A program made the translations under genes and the position numbers. A DNA stretch of 32,147 nucleotides from a virus (lineage: Duplodnaviria; Heunggongvirae; Uroviricota; Caudoviricetes): IMG/VR virus record IMGVR_UViG_2537562172_000009, positions 1-32,147 of that record; one strand, given 5' to 3'. Below are positions 172 through 11,589 of this stretch, one piece after another. The notes beneath the pieces are model-generated. The model made no database searches. It was not told the DNA's origin and saw only the letters and a list, made by a program, of their open reading frames with translations. Each line of letters begins with the position of its first letter. Position 1 is the stretch's first letter.

Positions 172-1221
172 TTATGCAACCTCTGCCGCCATATTGTCGC
201 CAACATACAGCGATAACGGATTAAGGGTTACAGCTTGTTCAAGGTGGTCAGGAGCAAAGTGTGCATACTTCATTGTTTCTCGAATATTGGCATGCCCGAG
301 AATTTTCTGCAGTACCAGTATATTCCCGCCGTTCATCATAAAATGCGCACCAAAAGTATGACGCAAAACGTGCGTCTTCTGCCCTTCCGTCAATTCAATA
401 TTCGTTAGTTTGAGCATCTTCTTAAACTCCTGATAGCAGGGTTTAAACATTCTGCCTTGACGTACGGACAACTCGTCGTACAGCCATTTAGGAATAGGAA
501 CTGTGCGATTCTTCTTACCTTTGGTTTTGGTGAACGTCAGTTTATATGGAGAAAGTTGAGGGCGGGTCAATCTCTCCGCTTCCCCCCATCGAGCGCCGGT
601 TGCAAGGCACACCTTAACAATCATGGTGAGGTCTTCTTTGCCGTATTGCTCGCAGGCTCGAAACAGCTCCGGGAGCTGAGACAAAGTTAGCCAGGACATT
701 TCTTTCTCAGCCTCTTTGAATACTCGGATCCCATCAAGTGGATTGGGTAGGCTCCACTCCCCTAACCGGCGGAGCTCATTAAACACTGCTTCTAGGTATT
801 GTTGTTCGCGATTGACGGTTATAGGTTTGGCGATCCATTTCGAGGGGTCTTTATGATAACCGTTGTCTATTTCACCACGTAATCGACGGTCACGATAATG
901 AGCCCAGTCTTTCGCGGTAAGGCGAGATGCAATCGGGTCACCAAGCCCATTACATACGATTTGAAGCTTTGCTAACCTCGACTTACTGGCGACTAACGCT
1001 TGACCGTGCAAATTGTGCCAAAGCTGAATAATCTCGCTTAAGCGTCGGCGGTCTTCTTTCTTGCCAAGCCACGGCTTATCTTCACTCTCGCTTTTGGTAA
1101 ATGCTTCGAATGCCTCGGCCTCACCTTTGGTATTGAATTGCCGACGTATACGCCGCCCTTCTCGACCATTTGGATAGAGCTCGCATAACCATTTGCCATT
1201 TTTTTGCTTACTTACAGTCAT
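172..1221 (-). CDS. int: tyrosine-type site-specific integrase (P2/186 family)
   Basis: 349-aa ORF; ATG at 1219-1221 (minus); C-terminal catalytic region with R...HxxR...Y-type motifs (VLRHTFGAHF, KYAHF); sits at the prophage end downstream of the repressor, as in P2/186. Confidence 0.93.
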   Translation of the reverse strand: MTVSKQKNGKWLCELYPNGREGRRIRRQFNTKGEAEAFEAFTKSESEDKPWLGKKEDRRRLSEIIQLWHNLHGQALVASKSRLAKLQIVCNGLGDPIASRLTAKDWAHYRDRRLRGEIDNGYHKDPSKWIAKPITVNREQQYLEAVFNELRRLGEWSLPNPLDGIRVFKEAEKEMSWLTLSQLPELFRACEQYGKEDLTMIVKVCLATGARWGEAERLTRPQLSPYKLTFTKTKGKKNRTVPIPKWLYDELSVRQGRMFKPCYQEFKKMLKLTNIELTEGQKTHVLRHTFGAHFMMNGGNILVLQKILGHANIRETMKYAHFAPDHLEQAVTLNPLSLYVGDNMAAEVA

Positions 1222-1243: not shown

Positions 1244-1582
1244 TTATTCGCAAAGTGCTGTTGCGGCATCCATTACAGGATCCAAAGGAATTTTTACACC
1301 TGCATACTCTGGACTGTCTTTCCAAACAGCATCAATATTGCTCCCCTCAAGCTTTCCAGACTTTACTCCATCAATAGCAAAACCATTTAATGGGTATCGG
1401 TCATCAGTTGCTTTGTCGTATACAAAGGCATACTTACCGTTAACGCAAGACACCGTAGCTTTTTCAAAAGTTAACGGCCAATCCTCACCAAACTTAGCGC
1501 CATCTAAATCCTGTGTTTTTTCAGCGGCTAAGGAGCCAAAAGAAAAGGTAAGAAGCATAGCTAAAAAGAGTTTACGTTTCAT
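1244..1582 (-). CDS. small secreted (periplasmic) protein of unknown function, moron inside the repressor-int operon
   Basis: ORF trimmed to the internal ATG (1580-1582) preceded by AAGGGA; the resulting 112-aa protein starts MKRKLFLAMLLTFSFGSLA-AEK, a classical Sec signal peptide with an A-x-A-like cleavage site and no lipobox Cys. Confidence 0.7.
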   Translation of the reverse strand: MKRKLFLAMLLTFSFGSLAAEKTQDLDGAKFGEDWPLTFEKATVSCVNGKYAFVYDKATDDRYPLNGFAIDGVKSGKLEGSNIDAVWKDSPEYAGVKIPLDPVMDAATALCE

Positions 1583-1590
1583 AATTTCCC

Positions 1591-2451
1591 TTATACGTGT
1601 TTTTCCAATGTGAAAACTACAACCCCGGCAGGCGTAATGTCGGTAATGTTGCATTCAAACTCAGCAGACTTATTTGACAACCTGACTTTTCCACCAGGTA
1701 AACGAATTACATCAAAAACATCAAGAGCGCCGTCGATATCAATTAACCAGCGACCATTACTTATATTCGAAGCAGAACAGTCGACAAGCCAAGAGGCAGC
1801 TACACCGTCAACAAAAATCAATTCCCCTGAGTTAGAAGGAATCATTGAGGGGTCAGGATGCCACGTTCCTGCATCCTTAAGCTCACCAGATTCAAGACGA
1901 GATTTTTTAATAGAAAAACCAGATGTGACATCTTCCCTGTTAGCTCGCATTTGCCCCTTGCCTGTTGCTAACCATTCCAGTGACGTATCGGTATCAAGAG
2001 CGCATGTAACAACAACATCACCAGGGAAAAAATCTCGCCTTACCCATGTGCTAATTGTGCCAGAGGAAATGCCGAGCAAATCACCGAGCTCCTTTTGCAT
2101 GGTAAAGCCATACGCATCAAGAATCCTACGCAAAACGGTTTTACCACCATTCGTCATAATCTCGTCATAAAGCTCTTTGCCTTTTAACTTGCAACTGGCT
2201 CGCTCGTGATTTGCATTTGCAAGCTCTCCATTTACAAGCCAATTGATATCAGCTCCCGTGTCAAGACAACACCTAACTATGACATTGCCAGGTATTGCAT
2301 CACGCTGAACCCAGCCGCTAACGCTGTGTTTAGCGATACCTAGCAGGTCAGCCAAATCCTTTTGCATCTTGACCCCATAGGCTGACATTAAGCGTTCCAA
2401 TACGCCGTTCGTTGCACTAACACGCCACTGAACATCAAGCTCAGAACTCAT
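1591..2451 (-). CDS. immunity repressor, 186 CI-like, with tandemly duplicated N-terminal HTH domain
   Basis: 286 aa. Two homologous about 65-aa segments (LERLMSAYGVKMQKDLADLLGIAKHSVSGWVQRDAIPGNVIVRCCLDTGADINWLVNGE and LRRILDAYGFTMQKELGDLLGISSGTISTWVRRDFFPGDVVVTCALDTDTSLEWLATGK) resembling the phage 186 CI-type HTH domain, followed by an about 115-aa C-terminal domain. Divergent from the Cox/Apl-like gene and upstream of int. Confidence 0.8.
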   Translation of the reverse strand: MSSELDVQWRVSATNGVLERLMSAYGVKMQKDLADLLGIAKHSVSGWVQRDAIPGNVIVRCCLDTGADINWLVNGELANANHERASCKLKGKELYDEIMTNGGKTVLRRILDAYGFTMQKELGDLLGISSGTISTWVRRDFFPGDVVVTCALDTDTSLEWLATGKGQMRANREDVTSGFSIKKSRLESGELKDAGTWHPDPSMIPSNSGELIFVDGVAASWLVDCSASNISNGRWLIDIDGALDVFDVIRLPGGKVRLSNKSAEFECNITDITPAGVVVFTLEKHV

Positions 2452-2480
2452 AAAACCCCCTACAGATAATTTTATGGGTG

Positions 2481-2509
2481 TTTACAGAAAACTTTTTACG
2501 ATCTATAGT
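2481..2509 (+). promoter_or_regulatory. candidate early lytic promoter (Pe/pR equivalent)
   Basis: TTTACA, 17-nt spacer, TATAGT on the + strand, about 60 nt upstream of the Cox/Apl-like start and inside the repressor/cox intergenic region. Confidence 0.6.
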
Positions 2510-2562
2510 GGCATTCATCGACCAAGATGCACACCACTGCACTACATTTCAAACAACAGGAG

Positions 2563-2591
2563 ATAATGCGATATGTCAGATGCAAAATCAA
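2563..2591 (-). promoter_or_regulatory. candidate lysogenic promoter (Pc/pL equivalent), face-to-face with the early promoter
   Basis: On the minus strand TTGATT, 17-nt spacer, CATTAT; predicted leftward start about 40 nt right of the predicted rightward start, giving convergent overlapping transcripts as described for the P2 and 186 switches. Confidence 0.35.
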
Positions 2592-2944
2592 TCTCGACGC
2601 ACGACTCGCAAAACTCACAAAATCAAACTGTGCTGCTAGATCCAACACAGTTTGATGCCATCGTTACCGCCATGCTGCCAGCTCTACAGACAATGATTCG
2701 CTCCGCTATGTCAGACACGATGACTGTGAAAGACTTCGCCGCTACTCGCGGTGTTAGCGAGCGTCTGGTCTGGCAATGGCTCGATGAGGGAGTCCTTCTC
2801 AAAGCTCCGACCAAAGACTTTTCCAACAAAGAGGAAGCTGCTAAACGAAGCCGAACCCTCGTAAACGTAAAAGCATGGCGCGATAAGCTGACTCAACAAG
2901 CGATTGATTGTCGCTACATCGACCAGCGCACCGCTCTTAACTGA
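2573..2944 (+). CDS. Cox/Apl-like excisionase-type HTH regulator
   Basis: 123 aa; SD CAGGAG about 10 nt upstream of the ATG; HTH-like segment MTVKDFAATRGVSERLVWQWLDEG; first rightward gene of the switch. The N-terminal 50 aa may not be translated if an internal Met is the real start. Confidence 0.65.
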   Translation: MSDAKSISTHDSQNSQNQTVLLDPTQFDAIVTAMLPALQTMIRSAMSDTMTVKDFAATRGVSERLVWQWLDEGVLLKAPTKDFSNKEEAAKRSRTLVNVKAWRDKLTQQAIDCRYIDQRTALN

Positions 2945-2976
2945 ATTTGATTATGCAAGTTAGAGGGAATTTAACC

Positions 2977-3486
2977 ATGTTTGATTTTCAGGTTTCCAAA
3001 CATCCCCACTATGACGAAGCATGCCGCATTTTCGCACAGCGTCACAACATGGCGAAGCTGGCCGAGCGTGCAGGTATGAACGTTCAAACGTTACGTAACA
3101 AGCTCAACCCGGAACAGCCTCACCAGTTCACGCCGTCTGAATTGTGGCTGCTGACTGACCTGACCGAAGACTCAACCCTCATTGATGGTTTTTTAGCGCA
3201 GATTCACTGCCTACCATGCGTGCCGGTTAATGAGTTGGCTAAAGACAAATTGCAGTCTTATGTCATGCGCGCAATGCGTGAACTCGGCGAACTGGCGAGC
3301 GGCGCGGTATCTGATGAACGTCTGACCATTGCCCGTAAGCACAACATGATTGAAAGCGTTAACTCCGGCATTCGCATGTTGTCATTGTCGGCTCTGGCGC
3401 TGCATGCACGTCTGCAGACTAATCCAGCTATGTCGAGCGTGGTCGATACCATGAGCGGTATTGGCGCATCGTTTGGCCTGATTTGA
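2977..3486 (+). CDS. cII: 186 CII-like transcriptional regulator
   Basis: ATG at 2977 preceded by AGAGGGA (8-nt spacing); 169 aa, same length as 186 CII as I recall it; HTH MAKLAERAGMNVQTLRNKL; position directly after apl/cox as in 186. The ORF-track start at 2947 is a TTG without SD. Confidence 0.7.
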   Translation: MFDFQVSKHPHYDEACRIFAQRHNMAKLAERAGMNVQTLRNKLNPEQPHQFTPSELWLLTDLTEDSTLIDGFLAQIHCLPCVPVNELAKDKLQSYVMRAMRELGELASGAVSDERLTIARKHNMIESVNSGIRMLSLSALALHARLQTNPAMSSVVDTMSGIGASFGLI

Positions 3487-3493
3487 GGTGCGT

Positions 3494-3694
3494 ATGCTGA
3501 AAAGTGAACCGTCATTCGCATCTCTGCTCGTTAAGCAAAGCCCCGGCATGCACTACGGCCACGGCTGGATCGCAGGTAAGGACGGCAAGCGCTGGCACCC
3601 GAGCCACTCGCAGGCTGATTTACTTGCTGGCCTCTCTACTCAAAAGCGGGGGGGATCATGGCTATCGAAGCTGTTTCCGCGACTGTTCCGCTAA
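3494..3694 (+). CDS. hypothetical small early protein
   Basis: 66 aa from the ATG at 3494, with GAGG about 5 nt upstream; abuts the cII stop; basic and Trp/His-rich. Occupies the slot of 186 fil, but homology cannot be asserted. Confidence 0.45.
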   Translation: MLKSEPSFASLLVKQSPGMHYGHGWIAGKDGKRWHPSHSQADLLAGLSTQKRGGSWLSKLFPRLFR

Positions 3695-3996
3695 AAGCGG
3701 GTGAACGTCTGGCCGGTCTCAATCATGTTGCCGAATTGCGCGCGAGATATTGGGGCGATAGCTGGAAAGAGGTTGAACGTTTTGTCGATGATATGCGCGA
3801 TAAACGTGACCCACAATTTGAAGAAAATAATCGGGCGCTGGCCGCTATTTTCTTTCTGGCAAAAATACCGGCGGCTCGTCATGAACTCGAATTAAGTGAG
3901 CTGACTACTGACGAGAAAAAGGCGCTTATTACAGCGATGAATCATTTTCGTGCAGTAGTGAGCTTATTTCCCAAACGGCTAACCATGCCGAATTAA
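3658..3996 (+). CDS. hypothetical early protein
   Basis: 112-aa ORF; ATG preceded by GGGGGA; overlaps the preceding ORF by 37 nt. Confidence 0.5.
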   Translation: MAIEAVSATVPLKAGERLAGLNHVAELRARYWGDSWKEVERFVDDMRDKRDPQFEENNRALAAIFFLAKIPAARHELELSELTTDEKKALITAMNHFRAVVSLFPKRLTMPN

Positions 3997-4063: not shown

Positions 4064-4291
4064 ATGCGTAATACCGAAATCCGTAGTTTTAACACTGATA
4101 GCGATGCGCTGGCCGTATTGCTGACCGATGCAAAAAAAGAAGAGCGTAAAGACCGCGCGCTCGCTGTTTCCATCCGCCTTGAGGCGCTGGCTATCCATAT
4201 TACCAGAGAGGGAATGAGCGGCACCGAAGCTGCCGAACTGCTGCGCCGTGAAGCAACCCGCTTTGAGAATGAATCACAGGAGCTGCACTAA
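4064..4291 (+). CDS. hypothetical early protein
   Basis: 75-aa ORF with SD CAGGAGAG upstream of the ATG; stop overlaps the next start (TAATG). Confidence 0.5.
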   Translation: MRNTEIRSFNTDSDALAVLLTDAKKEERKDRALAVSIRLEALAIHITREGMSGTEAAELLRREATRFENESQELH

Positions 4292-4512
4292 TGGCCGACG
4301 CAATGGATTTAGCACAACTGCGCGAGCAGGAAGACCGCGAACGCCACATCAGCAACGCACGCACCCGTATCGCTGCACCTTCCCGTTTTCTTTGCGAGGA
4401 ATGTGACGCACCAATCCCGGAAGCTCGCCGCATTGCGATTCCGGGCGTGGCTTTTTGCGTAACCTGCCAGCAAATCGCAGAGCTAAAAAACAAACACTAT
4501 CGGGGGGTATAA
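4291..4512 (+). CDS. TraR/DksA-family C4 zinc-finger protein
   Basis: 73 aa with CEEC-x17-CVTC (FLCEECDAPIPEARRIAIPGVAFCVTCQ), the signature spacing of TraR/DksA-type zinc fingers; tightly packed in the early operon. Confidence 0.7.
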   Translation: MADAMDLAQLREQEDRERHISNARTRIAAPSRFLCEECDAPIPEARRIAIPGVAFCVTCQQIAELKNKHYRGV

Positions 4513-4513
4513 A

Positions 4514-6736
4514 TTGGCTGTTCAATTCGCTTATCCGTGGAACGTCCCACGGTCGGCAATCTCCAGCCCATACCTTACTTATGAGCAACAGCATCGCCGC
4601 GACCGTATGTTCGCGGCTTTGCTGCATGCAAAAAAGGTGCTTTCTCTCCAGCCCGACTGCGTGCGGTTAGATGTTTATCGCACTGCTGCGGTGCTGGAGC
4701 AAAATCAGGGTAGTCAACGAGCCAATGCATTTTTAATCAGCTTCTGCAAAAAGGCATTGCCGCGTCTTGAACTGGTCGCAAAAAAATACGAATGCGCTGG
4801 TATCAACAGCAAGGTATCAACCGCTGTTTTTGGAAGTCATTTTGATACTCAGCAAATGCAATATCTGTCGTCACGCATGGTTAATATGGTCGCCCGATAT
4901 AACCGTCTCCCGGACATGTCGCGCGCTGATGTTGACCTGTTGGCCGCTGATATTGCTAATTTCATTCGTGGTGAACTTGCCAACATTAATGACCACGGAT
5001 TCGGCGAGCTTAAAACGCTGTACACCTGGTATATTCGTGCTGGCTTTATTTCCCTCCAATTCAACGTTATCCCACCACATTGGGAGCGGGTTGAAAAAAA
5101 ATATGTCGGTGCGGATGAAATCGCACCGGCTATCGCCAAAATGTTTAACGATGGGTGGTGGCGCGGTCGTTTGCGCCGTGTAGCAGCTACGTGGCGCGAA
5201 CACCTGCAAATTGCAGTCGGCAACGTCAGTAAGAAAAAAAACACTTACGCGAGTAAAAACTGCGTGACTGACTGGCGTGAACAAAAGCGCCGCACTCGTG
5301 AATTTCTCAAAGGTCTGGATCTCGAAGACGAAGACGGCAACCGTATCAGCCTAATTGAAAAATATGATGGCTCAGTTGCTAACCCTGCGATTCGCCGCTG
5401 TGAGCTCATGACCCGCATTCGTGGGTTTGAAAACATCTGTAATGAGCTCGGTTATGTCGGTGAGTTTTACACTCTAACCGCGCCGTCAAAATATCACGCC
5501 ACGACTAAAGCCGGTTACCGTAACAGCAAATGGAGCGGTGCCAGCCCGGCTGACACGCAAAACTATCTAACCGGTATCTGGGCGCGTATCCGTGCCAAAC
5601 TACATCGGGAAGATGTCCGTATTTTCGGTATTCGTGTCGCCGAGCCCCATCACGACGGCACTCCACACTGGCACATGCTGATGTTCATGCTGCCGGAAGA
5701 TGTTGAATATGTTCGCTCCATCGTCCGTAAATACGCATGGAAAGAAGACCGCCACGAACTGAAAAGCGATAAATCCAAAAAAGCACGTTTCCACGCGGAG
5801 TCCATTGACCCGGAGAAAGGCAGCGCAACCGGCTATGTTGCTAAATACATTTCAAAAAATATCGACGGTTATGCTCTCGATGGTGAAACCGATGATGAAA
5901 GCGGTGAGCTGCTGAAAGAGACAGCCCCCGCCGTTTCAGCATGGGCTGCGCGCTGGCACATCCGTCAGTTTCAGTTTATTGGTGGTGCGCCGGTGACGGT
6001 TTACCGTGAGTTGCGTCGCCTCGCTGATACCGAAACCGCGCACGGTCTGAGCGTTGAGTTTGCCGCCGTCCATGATGCCGCCGACGCTGGTGACTGGGCT
6101 GGTTATGTTAATGCTCAGGGTGGGCCGTTTGTCCGTCGCGATGATTTACAGGTGCGCACACTGTATGAACCGCGTACCGAGCTTAATCAGTACGGTGAGG
6201 AAACGGTATGTATTAAGGGGGTCTACGATTCCTCCATAGGTGCAGGAAGCCCGATTTTAACCCGGCTCACTCAGTGGAAGATTGTTCCGAAGCGTGCTGT
6301 TGATTTGGCCGTTGACCTTCAGGACGGCAAAGCCGTCCCTCGGAGTTCTGTCAATAACTGTACGGGAAGCGAAAACGAGCCACCGGAACTTGATTTATCA
6401 AAACCGCTGAGTCGACGTGAAAAGCGAGAGCTGACAAATCGACTCAGGAAGAAAAAACCAGCGACAAGGCAAAAATTCACACACGGAAGGGATGAACAAA
6501 ACGACTCTATAGAAAGAACCATCGACGAAATACACCTGACCACTGGCGTAACGATAAGCCGGGGTGAAGCCCTGCACCTAATGGCGGGTGGCAAATGCTG
6601 CTTTGAAGGGAAATGGCTTAGAGGAACAGCCAATGGTGAGCTATTTAGAGCCGCGCAGCCTTACTCCGCCAAAGCTAAGAATATCCTTAAGCGAGTTGCA
6701 AAACTGGCAGAAACGGCAAAATTACCACGTGATTAA
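4514..6736 (+). CDS. A: replication initiation endonuclease (P2 gpA / 186 RepA family, HUH rolling-circle initiator)
   Basis: 740 aa; HUH-type metal-binding motif GTPHWHMLMF and active-site tyrosine motif ATGYVAKYISKN; follows the small early ORFs as in P2. Start as given is a TTG (4514) one codon after the upstream stop, with a G-run SD; the next in-frame ATG is 31 codons downstream. Confidence 0.88.
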   Translation: MAVQFAYPWNVPRSAISSPYLTYEQQHRRDRMFAALLHAKKVLSLQPDCVRLDVYRTAAVLEQNQGSQRANAFLISFCKKALPRLELVAKKYECAGINSKVSTAVFGSHFDTQQMQYLSSRMVNMVARYNRLPDMSRADVDLLAADIANFIRGELANINDHGFGELKTLYTWYIRAGFISLQFNVIPPHWERVEKKYVGADEIAPAIAKMFNDGWWRGRLRRVAATWREHLQIAVGNVSKKKNTYASKNCVTDWREQKRRTREFLKGLDLEDEDGNRISLIEKYDGSVANPAIRRCELMTRIRGFENICNELGYVGEFYTLTAPSKYHATTKAGYRNSKWSGASPADTQNYLTGIWARIRAKLHREDVRIFGIRVAEPHHDGTPHWHMLMFMLPEDVEYVRSIVRKYAWKEDRHELKSDKSKKARFHAESIDPEKGSATGYVAKYISKNIDGYALDGETDDESGELLKETAPAVSAWAARWHIRQFQFIGGAPVTVYRELRRLADTETAHGLSVEFAAVHDAADAGDWAGYVNAQGGPFVRRDDLQVRTLYEPRTELNQYGEETVCIKGVYDSSIGAGSPILTRLTQWKIVPKRAVDLAVDLQDGKAVPRSSVNNCTGSENEPPELDLSKPLSRREKRELTNRLRKKKPATRQKFTHGRDEQNDSIERTIDEIHLTTGVTISRGEALHLMAGGKCCFEGKWLRGTANGELFRAAQPYSAKAKNILKRVAKLAETAKLPRD

Positions 6737-6850
6737 TTTGTCTCTATATCATGAACATACATCACAAAACTGATCTTCATTTTTTCTTCCCATCTTTTGC
6801 CATTACGTGCTACTGTATAAACATACAGTATTTTTATTGGGAGGGATTTC

Positions 6851-7033
6851 ATGGTTGGGGAGCATTTCAGCCGGGCGCAGCAAAAGTGGGCTTGTGTGCA
6901 ATTCATCGCCGAGGTATCTCTGATTGCAAACTGCAAACCATCAGACCTAAAGCTTGCTCTGACTCTCATTGCTGACTTAGCAAATAGTGAAAATAATGAA
7001 ACCGAAGAAGGCATGTTTTATGAGGCTGAGTAG
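6851..7033 (+). CDS. small acidic hypothetical protein
   Basis: 60-aa ORF; strong SD GGGAGGGA 5-8 nt before the ATG; acidic C-terminus (SENNETEEGMFYEAE); internal repeat FIAEVSLIAN / LTLIADLAN; stop overlaps a perfect palindrome. Confidence 0.4.
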   Translation: MVGEHFSRAQQKWACVQFIAEVSLIANCKPSDLKLALTLIADLANSENNETEEGMFYEAE

Positions 7034-7067: not shown

Positions 7068-7094
7068 AACCGGCACCATGATTGCCGGTTTTTT
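7068..7094 (+). terminator. rho-independent terminator ending the early/replication transcript
   Basis: AACCGGCA-CCATGAT-TGCCGGTT followed by TTTT(ATGTGT): GC-rich core stem, 7-nt loop, U-run. Confidence 0.65.
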
Positions 7095-7194
7095 ATGTGT
7101 TCTATCAAAAGGATGGGGTCTGACATTCTCATCATCAGAATTGTGTTATTTTAGTGCAACTCATTCGTCGTTAGACATTGTAAGGGCAATGTAT

Positions 7195-7905
7195 ATGAAA
7201 CCAAGCACACACTGCGTTTATTGTGGTGTTCTCATGAACAGGATTGAAAATCACCCCCACTGCCGCTCAGTTGAACACATGATCCCGCAAGTTTCAGTCT
7301 CCATTCATAGAACCAACGGCGAAGGCGATTTCCATGTATGCAAAAAGTGCAATGCCGATAAAAGCCGAATTGACGAGGTATTGGGTGTCATTTGCCGCAT
7401 GGTTGGTGAGCACTCAACAGGCAGTTTCGATGCTATCAATAAATTCAAAAATGCTCTTAAAAGAAATGATTCAAAATTCCGCGAGGCATTCCAAAGTGTT
7501 AAACATACAGGAAGAGGTGCGCAGATAACCTTACCCCTTGAAGGCAAAGAGATTTATCGATATGGCTCGTGGTTAGCAAAGGGCGTCTTTTTCTTAGAGT
7601 ATGAGCAGTTGTTGCCGCCAGATAAATTAATCTGGGTAAATATCGTTCGCCATGATGAAGTAATGGCTATTAGAGACATGTATAGAAATCAGCGTGGTTC
7701 TGAAGCTTTTGAGGACTTGTCCAAAAACAGCAATGTGCCAAACATTAACGGGGAATCTTTCCTGATTGTTGGCCGTGAAGCTAAGGAAATGTTCATATGT
7801 TTCAATCGCGTAATGATGTTCCATATAAAAATATTAGATAAGTCATTCATTAATCAAAAAAAATGCAAAAAATCACTACTTATGCTTGATAAGAGAATTC
7901 GATAA
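7195..7905 (+). CDS. HNH-motif nuclease-domain protein with uncharacterised C-terminal domain (accessory)
   Basis: 236 aa from the ATG at 7195 (SD TAAGGG 8 nt upstream; the ORF-track start at 7078 lies inside the terminator loop). N-terminus carries CxxC (CVYCG), EH (SVEHMIPQ) and H-x-CxxC-N (HVCKKCNADK), the HNH/zinc-finger nuclease arrangement. AT-rich. Confidence 0.65.
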   Translation: MKPSTHCVYCGVLMNRIENHPHCRSVEHMIPQVSVSIHRTNGEGDFHVCKKCNADKSRIDEVLGVICRMVGEHSTGSFDAINKFKNALKRNDSKFREAFQSVKHTGRGAQITLPLEGKEIYRYGSWLAKGVFFLEYEQLLPPDKLIWVNIVRHDEVMAIRDMYRNQRGSEAFEDLSKNSNVPNINGESFLIVGREAKEMFICFNRVMMFHIKILDKSFINQKKCKKSLLMLDKRIR

Positions 7906-8093
7906 AAATTTGAGATTAGGTAGATGCGGTTTGGCATTTGTCGCATGCGTTGAACTCACCACTCTTTCTGTGGGTATCTATTCGTTGGTAGCCGGTAGCC
8001 TTATGTAAAGCCACGCGGTTTGCTTTTAGTGGAATAGTTTTCATTGATTATTGTAAGATTGAGATCTTTATCTTAAAGAGGATTTTGCTACGT

Positions 8094-9701
8094 ATGTCTG
8101 CACAAAGCATATCAAGCCTTTTGAAGGCTAATAAATGGATCGATACGAATGTAGGTAAGTTTGAGTTTAAAAAAGAAATTGGTGAAGGGGGCAATAGCAA
8201 CGTGTTCCTTTTTTCTAATTCAGGGCATGATTTTGCAATAAAATTCTTAAAGCCAAGTAAAGATCATAGAAAAACAGATAGGTTTAAAGATGAGTTTTTT
8301 TGTGTATCTCAAATGCCATCCAACAAATACATTGTACAATACTACCACTTAGATAAAATAACAATCGATGATGTTGATTATTACATCATTATCATGAAGC
8401 CATACGCTCGGTCCTTAAAAAAAGATTTTGCCAGTACAAACTCTGCTGAAGAATATGAACGCGATGTGCGGAAATTATTTAATCATTTATTTAATGGGTT
8501 AAGACATATTCATAGCCATGGCGTTATTCATAGAGATCTTAAGCCTGAAAATATTTTTATTGACAGTGCTACCGACTCTTATGTAATCGGAGACTTTGGA
8601 ATATCAAGATTCGATGATGAGTTTTTTGCACGTTTGTCCCAGACCAGAGAAAGTGAACGATTGGCAAATTATAAATTTTCCGCACCAGAACAGTCATCGG
8701 GAAATCATGAGATCACTGTACGTAGCGATATTTACGCGCTCGGTCAGATTATGCAATATTTTAGTACTGGAGATGTGAGCAAGGGCAACGGAAGAGAAAA
8801 ATTATCCTATAGTAATGTTAGCGAGTTTATTGCCATTCTGGATGATATTATAGGGAAGTGTATCATGCACAACCCCAACGACAGATTCTCTTCTTTGGAT
8901 GATATGGCTGAATATTATAAATCGAAACTTGAATCTAATAAAAGATTAAAAGAGGCCCAGTTTAGGCAAAAAGAAGAGTCGGAAATGTGGGGTTTCCTTC
9001 ATGCATTTGATGACGCAATAGTAAGATCTGTCCCCCATATAAATAGAGTGGAAAAAATCACTTCGGATTTAGACATTGAATTATTTCTTTCAAGCATTGA
9101 TGGCACTATTAGCACAGAAAACACAAAAGATTCACTCTGGATGATTAAGTCGGATGGTGGGGATCTAAACTACTACGGGTCAAAATTAAAGCAAGGCAAA
9201 TACTTTGAGATAAACTTTGGTGGGTTCATCACTGAAGTGAATATAGATTCAATTGATGTATATTATGATAGCCACTATCATCATAAAAACTTCTTCATAA
9301 TCATCATCAGTGGCATGCCTCCTTTCGAATTTAACGACATATCGGACTTATCAAAGAAAAAGATGAGAAGTAAAATAACCTCAAAAGATGATTATTGTAT
9401 TGAGTGGAATGGGTATTGTTTAGATCCTAACGATGTAAGAAATAAATACGTAAAAATTGAAGGGACAACATATAGGGTTAGTCACGAGGATTTCAAGGAT
9501 GTACATCGCTGTATAAAAAGAGATGCATTCCTTGTTGTTCCAACCGGTACACCATCATCACATATGAATGATCGGTCTGTTGCAACGGACCTAATAAATG
9601 CGTGCTTAACGAACCCAAATGGACTAGTTACAACAGATGTAGACCTTTATTTGAGAAGAATCAGGGACCATTATCAGTCTTGGATTCGTAACAGCTTGTA
9701 G
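8094..9701 (+). CDS. Hanks-type Ser/Thr protein kinase fused to an about 250-aa domain of unknown function (accessory)
   Basis: 535 aa from the ATG at 8094 (SD AAAGAGGA upstream; the TTG at 8085 is too close to it). Gly-rich loop IGEGGNSNVF, beta3 Lys in FAIKFLK, catalytic loop HRDLKPEN, DFG (VIGDFGIS), APE (FSAPE), subdomain IX DIYALG. Very AT-rich. Confidence 0.8.
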   Translation: MSAQSISSLLKANKWIDTNVGKFEFKKEIGEGGNSNVFLFSNSGHDFAIKFLKPSKDHRKTDRFKDEFFCVSQMPSNKYIVQYYHLDKITIDDVDYYIIIMKPYARSLKKDFASTNSAEEYERDVRKLFNHLFNGLRHIHSHGVIHRDLKPENIFIDSATDSYVIGDFGISRFDDEFFARLSQTRESERLANYKFSAPEQSSGNHEITVRSDIYALGQIMQYFSTGDVSKGNGREKLSYSNVSEFIAILDDIIGKCIMHNPNDRFSSLDDMAEYYKSKLESNKRLKEAQFRQKEESEMWGFLHAFDDAIVRSVPHINRVEKITSDLDIELFLSSIDGTISTENTKDSLWMIKSDGGDLNYYGSKLKQGKYFEINFGGFITEVNIDSIDVYYDSHYHHKNFFIIIISGMPPFEFNDISDLSKKKMRSKITSKDDYCIEWNGYCLDPNDVRNKYVKIEGTTYRVSHEDFKDVHRCIKRDAFLVVPTGTPSSHMNDRSVATDLINACLTNPNGLVTTDVDLYLRRIRDHYQSWIRNSL

Positions 9702-9920
9702 CCCGATGAGCAAAGTTAAGAATCAGCCAATCAATCCGGCAGCGTGAATGTTGGTTTTTTATGCCATTTTTCCGCCATTTCTCCATTTTCTAGCCATGCA
9801 TGCATCTGGTGCATGGTTTTGCATGCGTCAGTGCTGCCCGTTCCGTACGTGCGCCGCCAGAGCTGGCGCGGCTTCGGAGTGGTCATGCAATTGCATTAAA
9901 ACCGACCCATAAAGCGGGCA

Positions 9921-9939
9921 GGCGTGGCGGGGAAAGCAT
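9921..9939. other. cos site (cohesive-end sequence of P2/186 type)
   Basis: GGCGTGGCGGGGAAAGCAT followed by TGCGCGC, matching the 19-nt cohesive ends of 186 (and differing at 2 positions from P2's) as I remember them; located between the replication/accessory side and the portal gene, where cos lies in a P2 prophage. Confidence 0.6.
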
Positions 9940-10048
9940 TGCGCGCAGCACACACTTGCAATTTGATATTTTTGGTGTAAAAAATCGGTGTCAATGAGTA
10001 GAAGATGAAAAAATAATAACCAAAGGTTACTAAATCAAGGATGTGCCG

Positions 10049-10867
10049 ATGAAAGTTAGCTATGACGTTGTCATCAAAAGTGGTGATCAAGAAGTTGATA
10101 TGGAGTATGGCCTTGATACCCTCTCTGGAACGGCTGAGGTGACATGCATACTAGCAGAGGCAATACTCAGAAAAAAAATTATTAAGCGCCGCACTCATGT
10201 TAACCCTGCGCGAGCGGTTCTCAAACAAAGCTTTAAAAGTTCTTATGGTCAAAACTTCGACTTGATTGTTAATGAGCCGGAATTAGCTGCCGAATTAAAA
10301 AAAATGACCCGTTCTGTGTTCTCGGAAGTCATGGGGTATTTTATTTCTGAATCTCTATATCTGGAAACTAAGGAGCTATCTCCAAAAGCTGCAGGAATTA
10401 TTGAGGAGCTTGAGGAAATTGAAGATGAACTTATTGATCGTATCAGACAACCTTTGGTAAGGATGCATAGGATAAATCTTCAAAAAAACTTTGATGTTGA
10501 ACTTAACTATAAAAAACCTGCTGGCAAACAAAGAATAGCAAAGTTAGACACAATGACTGCTACAAACTTGACACAATCAAAAATAATGCCCGGTCAAGTT
10601 AATATTAACGCAGTTATTACTCGATTTAATGCGAGAACTGGAAATGGTAGGTTAGTTATCGAAGGTGAAGATGATACAGTAGCCTTTGGTTTTTACATGC
10701 CTTTAAAGGCTATACCCGCCGCTCAAAAAAGATTGGTCTCATTAAATTTACACAATAATAATGGCAGGCAAGATAACTACACATATCTAAAACTTACTGT
10801 TAGTAAAGTTGTAGTAAAAAGTGGTGATGTGGTGAAATATCTAATCCGTATGGTTGAAACTGTATGA
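10049..10867 (+). CDS. hypothetical soluble protein, first gene of a coupled two-gene accessory cassette
   Basis: 272 aa from the ATG at 10049 (AAGGA 7 nt upstream); AT-rich; near-identical short motif close to both termini (YDVVIKSGDQEV and KVVVKSGDVVKY); stop overlaps the next start (ATGA). Confidence 0.6.
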   Translation: MKVSYDVVIKSGDQEVDMEYGLDTLSGTAEVTCILAEAILRKKIIKRRTHVNPARAVLKQSFKSSYGQNFDLIVNEPELAAELKKMTRSVFSEVMGYFISESLYLETKELSPKAAGIIEELEEIEDELIDRIRQPLVRMHRINLQKNFDVELNYKKPAGKQRIAKLDTMTATNLTQSKIMPGQVNINAVITRFNARTGNGRLVIEGEDDTVAFGFYMPLKAIPAAQKRLVSLNLHNNNGRQDNYTYLKLTVSKVVVKSGDVVKYLIRMVETV

Positions 10868-11589
10868 GAAAGGTGTTGCTGTCTTCGGCTGGCGTGATTG
10901 TAGCTGTGTGCGCCTTGTATTACTTCAACTTCGGAGTAAACGGACATTTATCCAGCAAGACTGATGTTTGGGCGCAGTTTGGTGATTATTTGGGTGGTGT
11001 CGTCAACCCTATACTTTCATTTATTACAATTTACCTCCTTATAAATTCAATAAAACTTCAAAGGGAGGCTAATTCCAGCCTGATCGATGAAGTAAAAAGG
11101 CAAGAATCTTTAGAAGAGTATAAAAAATTTGAAGTGAGATTTTTCCATTTGGTTGAATGTCAGGATTCTAACTTTGAAAGGTTTTGTGTTCAAGTTGGTG
11201 ATGTTGATGGACAAACTGACGGGGTGGTCGAAGAATTTACAAGTGGTGCAGCCGTAACTTATCTTGAAGATAATATTGTAATTTTAGTTAAAGCCAAGGT
11301 GAAAAAAGAGGTAATAACAAAGTGGTTAAGTGAAGTGGATGCTAATGATTGCATTTTTTCAGTGGTGCGTCGCTTTTATTTGATTGTGAAGTTGATAGAT
11401 AATTGCGGGGTTGAACGGGAAGATTATTATGAAACATTAGTTAACTTAACTGACATAAAAATAATATCTTTAGTTGCAATGGCTTGTACATACTACGAGT
11501 GGGATATCGTAAAGTATATCCATGACAGTAAAATACTTGAACGAGATGGAGTTAAAGAGTTTGTTTCGCAAATATCCACTCACGATTGA
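10864..11589 (+). CDS. hypothetical membrane protein (2 predicted N-terminal TM helices), second gene of the cassette
   Basis: 241 aa; hydrophobic segments LLSSAGVIVAVCALYYF and GDYLGGVVNPILSFITIYLLINSI followed by a charged soluble domain; ATGA overlap with the upstream gene. Confidence 0.6.
   Translation: MRKVLLSSAGVIVAVCALYYFNFGVNGHLSSKTDVWAQFGDYLGGVVNPILSFITIYLLINSIKLQREANSSLIDEVKRQESLEEYKKFEVRFFHLVECQDSNFERFCVQVGDVDGQTDGVVEEFTSGAAVTYLEDNIVILVKAKVKKEVITKWLSEVDANDCIFSVVRRFYLIVKLIDNCGVEREDYYETLVNLTDIKIISLVAMACTYYEWDIVKYIHDSKILERDGVKEFVSQISTHD

Follow-up and report, generated by a model that had tools for sequence, protein, structure and literature searches.

What would an immunity repressor do with two DNA-binding domains in a single chain? 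The question is raised by the cI gene of a caudoviral prophage sequence (IMG/VR record IMGVR_UViG_2537562172_000009, positions 1 to 32,147; this whole stretch of 32,147 nucleotides is called the window throughout), whose product, CI, had been described in an initial annotation as a repressor with two tandemly duplicated helix-turn-helix (HTH) domains of the kind found at the N-terminus of the phage 186 repressor. We find that the two domains evolve in opposite ways, the outer one (HTH1) varying together with the DNA of the early lytic promoter pR, the inner one (HTH2) remaining nearly invariant. We propose, with what we judge to be an even chance of being right, that the two heads divide labour, HTH1 acting at pR, where it would set the immunity type, and HTH2 acting on a conserved palindrome elsewhere.

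A repressor with two homologous DNA-binding heads

The homology of the two segments, which had been placed at about residues 19-83 and 107-171 on the basis of shared motifs that are present as quoted, is borne out by alignment and by profile searches alike. Residues 14-76 and 100-165 of CI share 52% identity and 68% positives (BLASTP E 4e-24), and the Smith-Waterman score of HTH1 against HTH2 is 183, compared to 24.5 +/- 4.2 in 1000 shuffles (z = 37.6). The Pfam family PF07022 (Phage_CI_repr) matches CI in two stretches (whole-protein E 1.3e-52, above the gathering score), a custom hidden Markov model places the HTH copies at amino acids (aa) 16-81 and 105-169, and PF16452 (Phage_CI_C) matches at aa 180-274 (E 1.3e-20, 74 bits, cut-off 27). 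The best PHROGs family for CI is phrog_4, transcriptional/CI-type repressors, and Peptidase_S24 (PF00717) is absent among the best 25 of the 27 Pfam families matched at E up to 1.

The 186 repressor, described at the outset as a protein of about 190 residues with one such domain, indeed has 192 aa and one HTH (PDB 2FJR, 2FKD). It belongs to the same PF07022 and PF16452 families and its C-terminal domain (CTD) is superposable, yet it is only about 32% identical to the CI described here; its structure 2fjr aligns to aa 105-279, i.e., to HTH2 and the CTD, and CI has in addition an N-terminal HTH and a linker, together about 90 aa. By homology and context CI is a member of the 186 CI family, and by its two HTH domains it is an architectural variant.

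An AlphaFold2 (AF2) model built from 41 homologues has three folded modules, namely helices at 17-74, helices at 92/103-163 and a beta domain at 181-283, joined by low-confidence linkers at 78-90 and 170-177 (predicted local distance difference test score, pLDDT, <50 for aa 78-90). The C-terminal part of the linker between the heads forms a conserved helix (aa 92-101) that runs into HTH2, and the linker residues L89, K90, G91, K92 and Y95 are invariant or nearly so. As the predicted template modelling (TM) score, pTM, is 0.39 and the linkers are disordered, the model predicts no fixed arrangement of the domains and carries no information on the packing of HTH1 and HTH2. The CTD superposes on that of 186 (2fkd) with a target-normalised TM of 0.91 and a root mean square deviation of 1.8 Å. 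The 186 repressor assembles as a wheel of seven dimers that wraps or loops DNA (PMC3675496), and from the homology of the CTDs it is plausible that CI forms such a wheel as well.

Codon M99 of cI (window 2155-2157) aligns with the start methionine of single-domain CI proteins (M-x-x-GGK...), raising the possibility of a short HTH2-CTD isoform initiated internally; upstream of this codon there is a weak Shine-Dalgarno-like GAG alone, and M99 is not invariant.

Likeness to other repressors is more distant. Lambda CI shares the immunity role and, as LexA does, the layout of an N-terminal HTH followed by a C-terminal oligomerisation domain, and the C-terminal domains of LexA show a distant fold likeness to the CTD (Foldseek target-normalised TM 0.56-0.61). 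The small C repressor of P2, which binds direct repeats (PMC2995052), is unrelated to CI; the C and CI types cannot be aligned (PMC3448106), and no P2 C-type family is found among the listed Pfam or PHROG matches of CI.

The two-headed architecture is widespread. Escherichia phage vB_EcoM-613R3 encodes the very same CI (100% identity), the annotated cI product of Salmonella phage PSP3 shares 98.3% identity with it, and in a search of 5.8 billion proteins all of the best 120 clusters carry the same uninterrupted architecture of 277-290 aa at 58-98% identity, in genera including Klebsiella, Enterobacter, Salmonella, Citrobacter, Cronobacter, Pantoea and Brenneria. The tandem CI is present in 10 complete phage records, among them isolated viable phages (PSP3, SEN1, SW9, Midge). 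Most of the relatives represented at 50% identity are 185-210 aa long, have a single HTH and align to query aa 100-285; 145 re-scanned representatives had one HTH in 107 cases, two in 37 and three in 1. Tandem-HTH repressors also occur in other P2-like genera, in Klebsiella phages with proteins of 311-313 aa. Three HTH copies, or as many as six matched stretches, occur in some proteins of the CI family (P0236, 323 aa; P0214, 525 aa; P0184/P0196/P0198, 315-358 aa).

Although cI is known and annotated, has been in databases for two decades and has precomputed domain hits, its architecture appears undescribed in the searchable literature, in which the cI of PSP3 is annotated and uncharacterised. 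We found no earlier description of a CI with two HTH domains in the openly searchable literature, subscription-only papers lying outside the search. In the only paper we found to deal with the protein, PsP3 CI is described as having 'a longer C-terminal domain' (PMC3448106); as the extra length is ascribed there to the C-terminal domain, the N-terminal repeat went unrecognised.

Opposite evolution of the heads and their candidate sites

The heads were compared in 121 clade members for column entropy and in 80 loci from viral contigs (403 kb) for immunity types. HTH2 has a mean column entropy of 0.27, with 32 of 65 columns invariant and an invariant recognition helix, SSGTISTWVRR, whereas HTH1 has a mean entropy of 0.86, 12 invariant columns of 65 and a variable recognition helix. 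Between immunity types the nonsynonymous divergence (dN) of HTH2 is 0.03-0.06 at a synonymous divergence (dS) that is saturated (at least 1.35), giving a dN/dS ratio (omega) of 0.01-0.03, and that of HTH1 is 0.3-0.4 with an omega of about 0.15. Since dS in HTH2 is saturated and dN low, its conservation is due to selection and not to recent ancestry. When an E. coli phage is compared with a Pantoea phage that has the same HTH1 helix, the best conserved part of the protein is HTH1 (dN 0.10, compared to 0.16 for HTH2 and 0.39 for the CTD).

The 80 loci comprise 17 HTH1 variants, each with its own DNA between the cI start and the -10 hexamer of pR. Direct repeats near pR are spaced 22 bp from each other in type A (the window, PSP3, SEN1) and 21 bp in type B (Midge), a spacing that matches the two-turn phasing of the 186 pR operators, and types C (SW9) and D have 7-3-7 and 7-2-7 palindromes across the -35 hexamer. 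The position and the hexamers of pR are the same in all immunity types. Nucleotide identity of the window to types B, C and D is 25-30% at 2401-2460 and returns abruptly at 2521-2580. In this block types A, B and C match the window at 100% and type D at 86% (the figures for 2581-2640 being 85-98%), although the flanking genes vary at synonymous sites. As HTH1 and the pR DNA change together and the change ends sharply at 2521, we regard the stretch of ~2160-2520 as a hypervariable cassette within more conserved DNA. The suggestion that a second domain could define a distinct immunity specificity thus holds as to the link, HTH1 and pR DNA varying as one cassette, but not as to anything peculiar to this prophage, the PSP3 cI being 98% identical and the architecture widespread.

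The motif TACAGAnAA is a candidate at most for the type-A operator, as it was drawn from the region itself and varies within type A. All three of its exact copies in the window fall within 2461-2693, the second overlapping the -35 hexamer and the third (2685) being absent from PSP3.

For HTH2, a candidate site is offered by the single-domain CI P0133 (196 aa), which has exactly its recognition helix. In 31 of 31 P0133 loci the divergent promoter reads TTGACA-ACTTGCAAATGCAAGT-TTAGATT, in which ACTTGCAAATGCAAGT is a 7-2-7 palindrome that fills the -35/-10 spacer, and no further copy at up to 3 mismatches was found beyond the lytic promoter in these loci (105 kb). The HTH of P0133/P0135-type proteins is 74-88% identical to HTH2, the CTD is of the same family, and the palindrome has the place of a promoter-proximal operator; while it occupies the spacer of the lytic promoter in P0133-type loci, in tandem CI loci it is found at flanking sites. 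The P0133-type genes (L091-L121) are located at the edge of ~15-kb elements beside a host aroG-like gene; int, apl and cII are lacking in the vicinity of cI, and a DUF5347-like gene and a gene for a DksA-like zinc-finger protein come first on the lytic side. These elements may be satellites or remnants that share the operator specificity of their repressor with PSP3-type phages, making cross-regulation possible.

In the 32-kb window, GCTTGCAAATGCAAAT is the only match to ACTTGCAAATGCAAGT at up to 3 mismatches; at up to 4 there are three, at 2209-2224, at 2945-2960 and in gene A at 5202, the last being probably a chance match. The identical E. coli prophage has, in its ogr promoter just past the end of the window and 15-30 nt behind gene D, the sequence ACTTGCAAATGCAATT, which has one mismatch to the palindrome (0.06 matches expected) and lies over the TTGCAA -35 of that promoter. 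The places inside cI, in the apl/cII gap and at ogr are equivalent to those of the 186 operators, where FL is inside cI, FR is between apl and cII over the promoter pE, and the late promoter pB has operators of its own; these 186 sites have a recognition sequence other than that of 186 pR. The sequences themselves are unrelated, ACTTGCA-AA-TGCAAGT here and ATTCAC-N5-GTGAAT in 186. The FR-like site here holds a leftward -10-like CATAAT (2955 to 2950) with a poor -35, and as such resembles a CII-dependent pE overlapped by a CI site, as in 186. It had been expected that a second domain would change the geometry of the operator, and 2452-2600 had been suggested as the place to look for operators. 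That stretch has type-specific repeats only, and the more informative sites, the palindromes at 2209-2224, 2945-2960 and the ogr promoter, lie outside it and imply two operator classes rather than one altered operator.

The positions are conserved. In the 80 tandem-CI loci there are 97 sites at up to 3 mismatches, 67 of which fall between +200 and +249 relative to the start of cI and 21 near -550 (the apl/cII junction), with 4 at -400 and 5 elsewhere, so that 88 of the 97 are at two fixed positions, inside cI and at the apl/cII junction. Some of the FR-like sites read ACTTGCAAAATCAAGT, identical to a single-domain-type promoter operator. The intragenic site is present in every immunity type and comes in two encodings, L-A-N-A-N (CTT GCA AAT GCA AAT) in 61 loci and S-L-H-L-Q (AGT TTG CAT TTG CAA G) in 19 loci, the latter in another frame and with the asymmetric centre reversed. 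Since the site is kept across two frames and two peptides, the conserved object is the DNA sequence. Among 180 distinct CI genes, the tandem genes have their in-gene site at 1-5 mismatches (mostly 1-4). Of the 29 single-domain P0133-type genes, by contrast, 24 contain nothing closer to the palindrome than a stretch with 5-7 mismatches, and have the palindrome itself upstream of the gene.

The palindrome of the ogr promoter is constant across HTH1 types A, B and C, and the phage records with an ogr promoter that bears it are precisely the 10 with this CI clade. Of 80 ogr loci from viral contigs, ~43 have it at -60 to -63, including six tandem-CI contigs of types A, B and C'. In other ogr lineages the same spot is taken by operators of the 186 pB type, which are proven, or by a third inverted repeat. 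One position of the ogr/B promoters of P2-like phages (L361-L440) thus hosts at least three operator classes, ACTTGCAAATG[C/T]AAG, ATTCAC-N5-GTGAAT as in 186, and GTGAATT...AATTCAC, and these classes could serve genome-wide prediction of repressor specificity. A search for complete phages with the '...ATGTAAG' variant of the ogr operator returned the same PSP3-clade phages only, and a scan of the viral collection for the 15-mer ACTTACAAATGTAAG was uninformative, its chance frequency being too high.

In 186 a single 14-mer wheel engages FL, FR and pR, two turns separate the pR sites, and pB has a second recognition sequence; one HTH thus reads two recognition sequences, while the repressor described here has two HTHs, apparently specialised. 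Taking together the observed architecture, the asymmetry of selection on the heads, the cassette structure, the positions and conservation of the sites and the co-occurrences, we propose the following division of labour. The outer, variable HTH1 would recognise type-specific operators that overlap pR and so set the immunity type, and the inner, invariant HTH2, next to the oligomerisation domain, would recognise the palindrome ACTTGCA-AA-TGCAAGT inside cI (FL-like), in the apl/cII gap (FR-like, over the pE-like -10) and at the -35 of the promoter of the late activator gene ogr. CI would repress pR, hold the flanking DNA on the same oligomer and keep the late genes off; should it assemble as a wheel like that of 186, one oligomer would hold pR via the outer heads and the flanking sites via the inner heads. 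New immunities would arise by swapping the HTH1-plus-pR cassette alone, and induction would proceed via the LexA-controlled antirepressor TumA, which would act on a constant part of CI. Historically, an ancestor with an HTH2-type head and the palindrome at all its sites would have acquired the added head and new pR operators, after which immunity could diversify with the network untouched. More tentatively, and somewhat short of an even chance in our estimate, the dual specificity of the one 186 HTH would be resolved here into two dedicated heads, with an exchangeable HTH1-pR immunity cassette set against invariant HTH2 circuitry (flanking sites, late promoter, antirepressor), in tandem-head repressors that apparently arose more than once.

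Several points weigh against this proposal. HTH1 physically adjoins pR, so its covariation with the promoter DNA could be simple linkage. No type-A operator could be delimited at pR, where the repeats lie partly on the -35 and -10 hexamers. In the window the FR-like site shows 4 mismatches, and it is missing at that position in the Pantoea group, and as it overlaps the pE-like -10 its conservation has a second possible cause. Covariation between the HTH2 helix and the palindrome arms covers few lineages and is not clean; a symmetric change to TTACA...TGTAA at the FL-like site of loci L082-85, tried as decisive evidence of such covariation, is undercut by their FR-like site, which keeps the TTGCA arm. 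The single-domain elements and the PSP3-type phages share the genes for DUF5347 and the DksA-like zinc finger as well, and another shared protein could bind the palindrome. That the ogr promoter and TumA are confined to the same 10 phages could be a matter of common descent. Finally, we infer rather than observe which head reads which site, that CI forms a wheel and what TumA targets.

Alternative readings and the origin of the extra head

It may be that CI has one binding head, HTH2, which binds all operators, pR being repressed by wrapping or looping from the flanking palindromes or through weak unrecognised sites. HTH1 would then be a regulatory or protein-interaction module (an antirepressor dock or decoy, or an autoinhibitory element) that varies owing to an arms race. 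The 186 wheel does repress the adjacent pL via weak wrapped contacts, HTH2 stands where 186 has its N-terminal domain and is under the strongest constraint in CI, and both the possible linkage of HTH1 to pR and the failure to delimit type-A operators would fit. We nevertheless consider this reading unlikely, as the pR region has no copy of the palindrome (the best match has 8 mismatches, the null level) while the single-domain relative has it in its promoter spacer, and as clear repeats or palindromes, specific to each type, lie over the -35 of pR in types B, C and D. The -35/-10 spacer of pR is, moreover, conserved between E. coli and Pantoea phages with the same HTH1 helix, and HTH1 still matches the CI HTH model with a high score over its full length, has 12 invariant columns (W47 and R50 among them) and evolves at the omega given above. 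Nor does TumA behave as expected of a partner of HTH1: its homologues are found in exactly the 10 phage records with a PSP3-clade tandem CI, whatever the HTH1 type, and are equally similar in types A, B and C. As TumA is constant across HTH1 types, it probably targets a constant part of CI, perhaps adding to the constraint on HTH2.

Just as improbable in our view is joint binding, in which each subunit would read a bipartite asymmetric site, its variable half with HTH1 and its constant half (such as CGATCTAwAGTG at the -10 of pR) with HTH2, in the manner of MarA/Rob or POU-type recognition, the palindromes being bound by something else or of minor importance. This comes near to the altered operator geometry that had been suggested first. 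The flexible linker of ~23 aa would permit adjacent binding, and almost every immunity type has CGATCTAwAGTG next to its variable DNA, an exception being L082, whose HTH2 helix differs. This element is, however, unlike the palindrome half-site of the single-domain CI with the same recognition helix, and since it holds the -10 hexamer and edges the 100%-identical block, its conservation needs no repressor. Joint binding also gives no account of the frame-independent intragenic palindrome or of its recurrence at the FR-like site and at ogr.

A shade less probable still is that the palindrome is no CI site, being bound by DUF5347, the DksA-like zinc finger or a host protein, or serving as a promoter or recombination element, the conservation of HTH2 then being owed to the docking of TumA or to its packing on the oligomerisation domain. 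Genes for DUF5347 and zf-dskA_traR proteins are present both in the window (3658-3996 and 4291-4512) and, in the single-domain elements, on the lytic side; TTGCAA within the palindrome is a good -35 hexamer, and the FR-like copy holds the -10-like CATAAT; the left edge of the variable cassette is near the FL-like site; and TumA co-occurs strictly with this CI clade. Yet no promoter is apparent at the intragenic copy, 186 has experimentally established CI operators at the three equivalent positions, and the spot at ogr holds different palindromes by lineage, those of 186 type being proven CI sites. In addition, the arm base tracks the class of the HTH2 helix: arm position 5 is G in 113 of 130 arms where the helix is T[IV]STW, and A in 16 of 22 where it is TMSAW.

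Finally, that two repressor genes, or a repressor and a cro-like gene, were fused by frameshift or misassembly is ruled out for practical purposes, as nothing beyond the unusual length compared to 186 CI speaks for it, while the same intact ORF (open reading frame) occurs in >120 protein clusters at 58-100% identity, including all of the best 120, in the 10 complete phage records with their isolated phages and in 67 complete E. coli genomes, and both HTH copies and the linker helix are under purifying selection.

Returning to the proposed division of labour between two binding heads, we asked where the second head came from. Single-domain CIs (P0127, P0133, P0135) have an HTH that shares 74-90% identity with HTH2, while HTH1 is ~45-56% identical to any HTH2 or single-domain HTH, ~56% at most. 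Of the two heads HTH2 is clearly ancestral and HTH1 was added, and HTH1 may be an old, fast-evolving duplicate or a capture from another CI. In a neighbour-joining tree 15 of the 16 HTH1 copies group together, deep and on long branches, without being sister to HTH2, and the heads of the Klebsiella and more distant tandem proteins fall elsewhere. Bootstrap support for HTH1 and HTH2 as sisters is 0% in the PSP3 group and in the Klebsiella group (65 columns), that for an exclusive clade of the distant group's heads is 59%, and deep groupings range from 2 to 59%. Of the tandem duplication assumed at first, two homologous HTHs are confirmed and duplication is not established, the sister bootstrap being 0% and the tree poorly resolved.

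The topology of that tree would give at least three origins of the tandem architecture; we do not rely on it, the bootstraps on 65 columns being weak, and any claim of multiple origins therefore rests mainly on pairwise identities. The Klebsiella phages ST437-OXA245phi4.2 and Kp4860-7 (311-313 aa) and the more distant proteins of 315-358 aa have the same two PF07022 matches and PF16452, but at ~31-36% identity to CI and with longer linkers between the heads. Their heads are 59-70% identical to each other or closest to those of their own single-domain relatives, which suggests separate origins, if with weak bootstraps, and in the distant tandem proteins the two heads share 52-70% identity, suggesting recent or repeated duplications. 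It is likely, though not proven, that the tandem architecture arose more than once in P2-like phages. A first palindrome scan of Kp4860-7 gave no clear two-class pattern. Upstream of its cI (L007:1300-1425) there are 186-like elements, CTTCACAAAACGGAGAAT and GTTCACATAAAGAATAT, and its operators therefore resemble the 186 FL/FR/pB type and not the palindrome of the PSP3 clade.

The surrounding switch and its significance

The window is a PSP3-like prophage of E. coli (Eganvirus, the phage 186 family) with cargo genes other than those of PSP3. Its first 6800 positions are 100% identical to a region of E. coli strain P13-6, and at least 80% of this segment is present in 67 of 5426 complete E. coli genomes. 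Leftward, on the minus strand, are int, a DUF2511 gene and cI, and rightward, on the plus strand, orf30/apl, cII, the fil-region and A; this is the order of 186 and PSP3, and in 186 as here int-cI run leftward facing pR-apl-cII. The whole PSP3 clade (cI NP_958086, 286 aa, in PSP3; SEN1, SW9, SI22, Midge, RCIP0057, vB_EcoM-613R3) shares gene order, tumA, ogr promoter and palindromes. The features are collected in Table 1.

Table 1. Features of the cI locus and its switch region, in window coordinates
Feature	Position	Strand	Basis or remark
cI, 286-aa immunity repressor	1591-2451	-	ORF; HTH1-linker-HTH2-linker-CTD; 2x PF07022 + PF16452
HTH1 (aa 17-81), outer variable DNA-binding domain, proposed immunity determinant	2209-2403	-	Pfam and custom HMM limits
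Linker between the HTHs (aa 82-104)	2140-2208	-	AF2 model; residue conservation
HTH2 (aa 105-169), inner near-invariant domain	1945-2139	-	Same place as the single 186 CI N-terminal domain
CTD (aa 180-286), homologous to the wheel-forming oligomerisation domain of 186 CI	1594-1914	-	PF16452; AF2 compared with 2fkd
Integrase gene, downstream of cI in the leftward lysogenic operon	172-1221	-	ORF; annotated in the identical E. coli prophage and PSP3
DUF2511 (YebY-like) protein with signal peptide, between int and cI	1244-1582	-	8 nt after the cI stop, as PSP3 orf28
FL-like candidate operator GCTTGCAAATGCAAAT, 2 mismatches to ACTTGCAAATGCAAGT	2209-2224		Within cI codons 76-81, ~270-300 bp left of pR
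Variable operator region around pR, repeats CTACAGATAATTTT (2460-2473) and TTACAGAAAACTTT (2482-2495), 22 bp apart	2455-2510		
pR candidate, early lytic promoter, TTTACA - 17 nt - TATAGT	2481-2509	+	Consensus scan, 10/12 matches
Conserved block	2521-2600		Weak leftward pL candidates; TGCAC repeats 10 bp apart (2528, 2538)
First lytic gene, PSP3 orf30 homologue, Apl/Cox-like	2573-2944	+	phrog_3554 E 3e-75; weak Cox-like phrog_575 E 8e-5
FR-like candidate operator ATTTGATTATGCAAGT (reverse complement ACTTGCATAATCAAAT), 4 mismatches	2945-2960		32-nt gap from orf30 stop to cII ATG (2977)
cII-type establishment activator gene	2977-3486	+	ORF; homologous to annotated PSP3 and 186 cII
LexA box CTGTATAAACATACAG, perfect, upstream of tumA	6813-6828	+	Pattern search
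tumA, 60-aa homologue of SOS-controlled antirepressor, presumed inducer acting on CI	6851-7033	+	90% identical to PSP3 TumA

The DUF2511 gene looks like a moron that is expressed in the lysogen from within the immunity operon. No clear pL was found in a relaxed scan of the minus strand, the best leftward candidates having 8/12 matches and all lying in 2521-2600; the TGCAC pair in this block is spaced as expected of Apl/Cox-type sites, and by analogy to the pL and Apl sites of 186 we infer that the block has a pL/Apl function. The orf30 homologue, which has no Pfam match and is annotated Cox in phage Midge, is a probable excisionase and lytic repressor of Apl/Cox type.

Searching the window for the LexA-box pattern gave 2 matches compared to 0.3 expected, and the same box stands upstream of tumA in PSP3; the second match (CTGT-N8-ACAG) is at 1314-1329, within the DUF2511 gene. 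An antirepressor role of PSP3 TumA has been cited (PMC3121763). TumA corresponds to the antirepressor half of 186 Tum, and the DinI-like tumB of PSP3 is missing here; the TumA of the window differs from all 10 phage homologues by the same 10%. From the LexA box, the TumA homologue and the gene order, we conclude that cI is the immunity repressor of a 186-type, antirepressor-induced switch, as its family membership and the first reading of the gene had it. As in 186, induction would be by a LexA-controlled Tum-type antirepressor, Tum being split here with the TumA half alone present, and apparently not by self-cleavage of the repressor; support for SOS induction by this route is at the genomic level only.

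Between A/tumA and the portal gene there is a variable hotspot (7078-11589) that holds the gene for a 538-aa Ser/Thr protein kinase (8085-9701), which matches the anti-phage defence family PD-T4-6 (PADLOC E 9e-36; Pfam Pkinase E 4e-30). With the neighbouring ORFs of unknown function (7078-7905, with a weak PtuB-like match, 10043-10867 and 10864-11589), it is probably an island of defence cargo.

The repressor of 186 is a model for repression by a DNA-wrapping protein wheel, and that its one HTH reads two unrelated operators is an acknowledged oddity. A common relative whose subunits bear two heads each (at most 28 in a wheel, should it assemble as 186 CI does) would be a natural system in which the two recognition functions are separated, and it would let the looping at flanking sites and the repression of the promoter be studied in combination. 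The two-head model is a specific and cheaply testable mechanism that touches this known peculiarity of the 186 system. If it is true, it explains how many immunity types can exist without the whole operator network having to evolve anew. The HTH1-plus-pR cassette suggests a simple route to immunity diversification in the P2-like prophages of Enterobacterales, with relevance to superinfection exclusion, to polylysogeny and to the engineering of orthogonal repressor-operator pairs.

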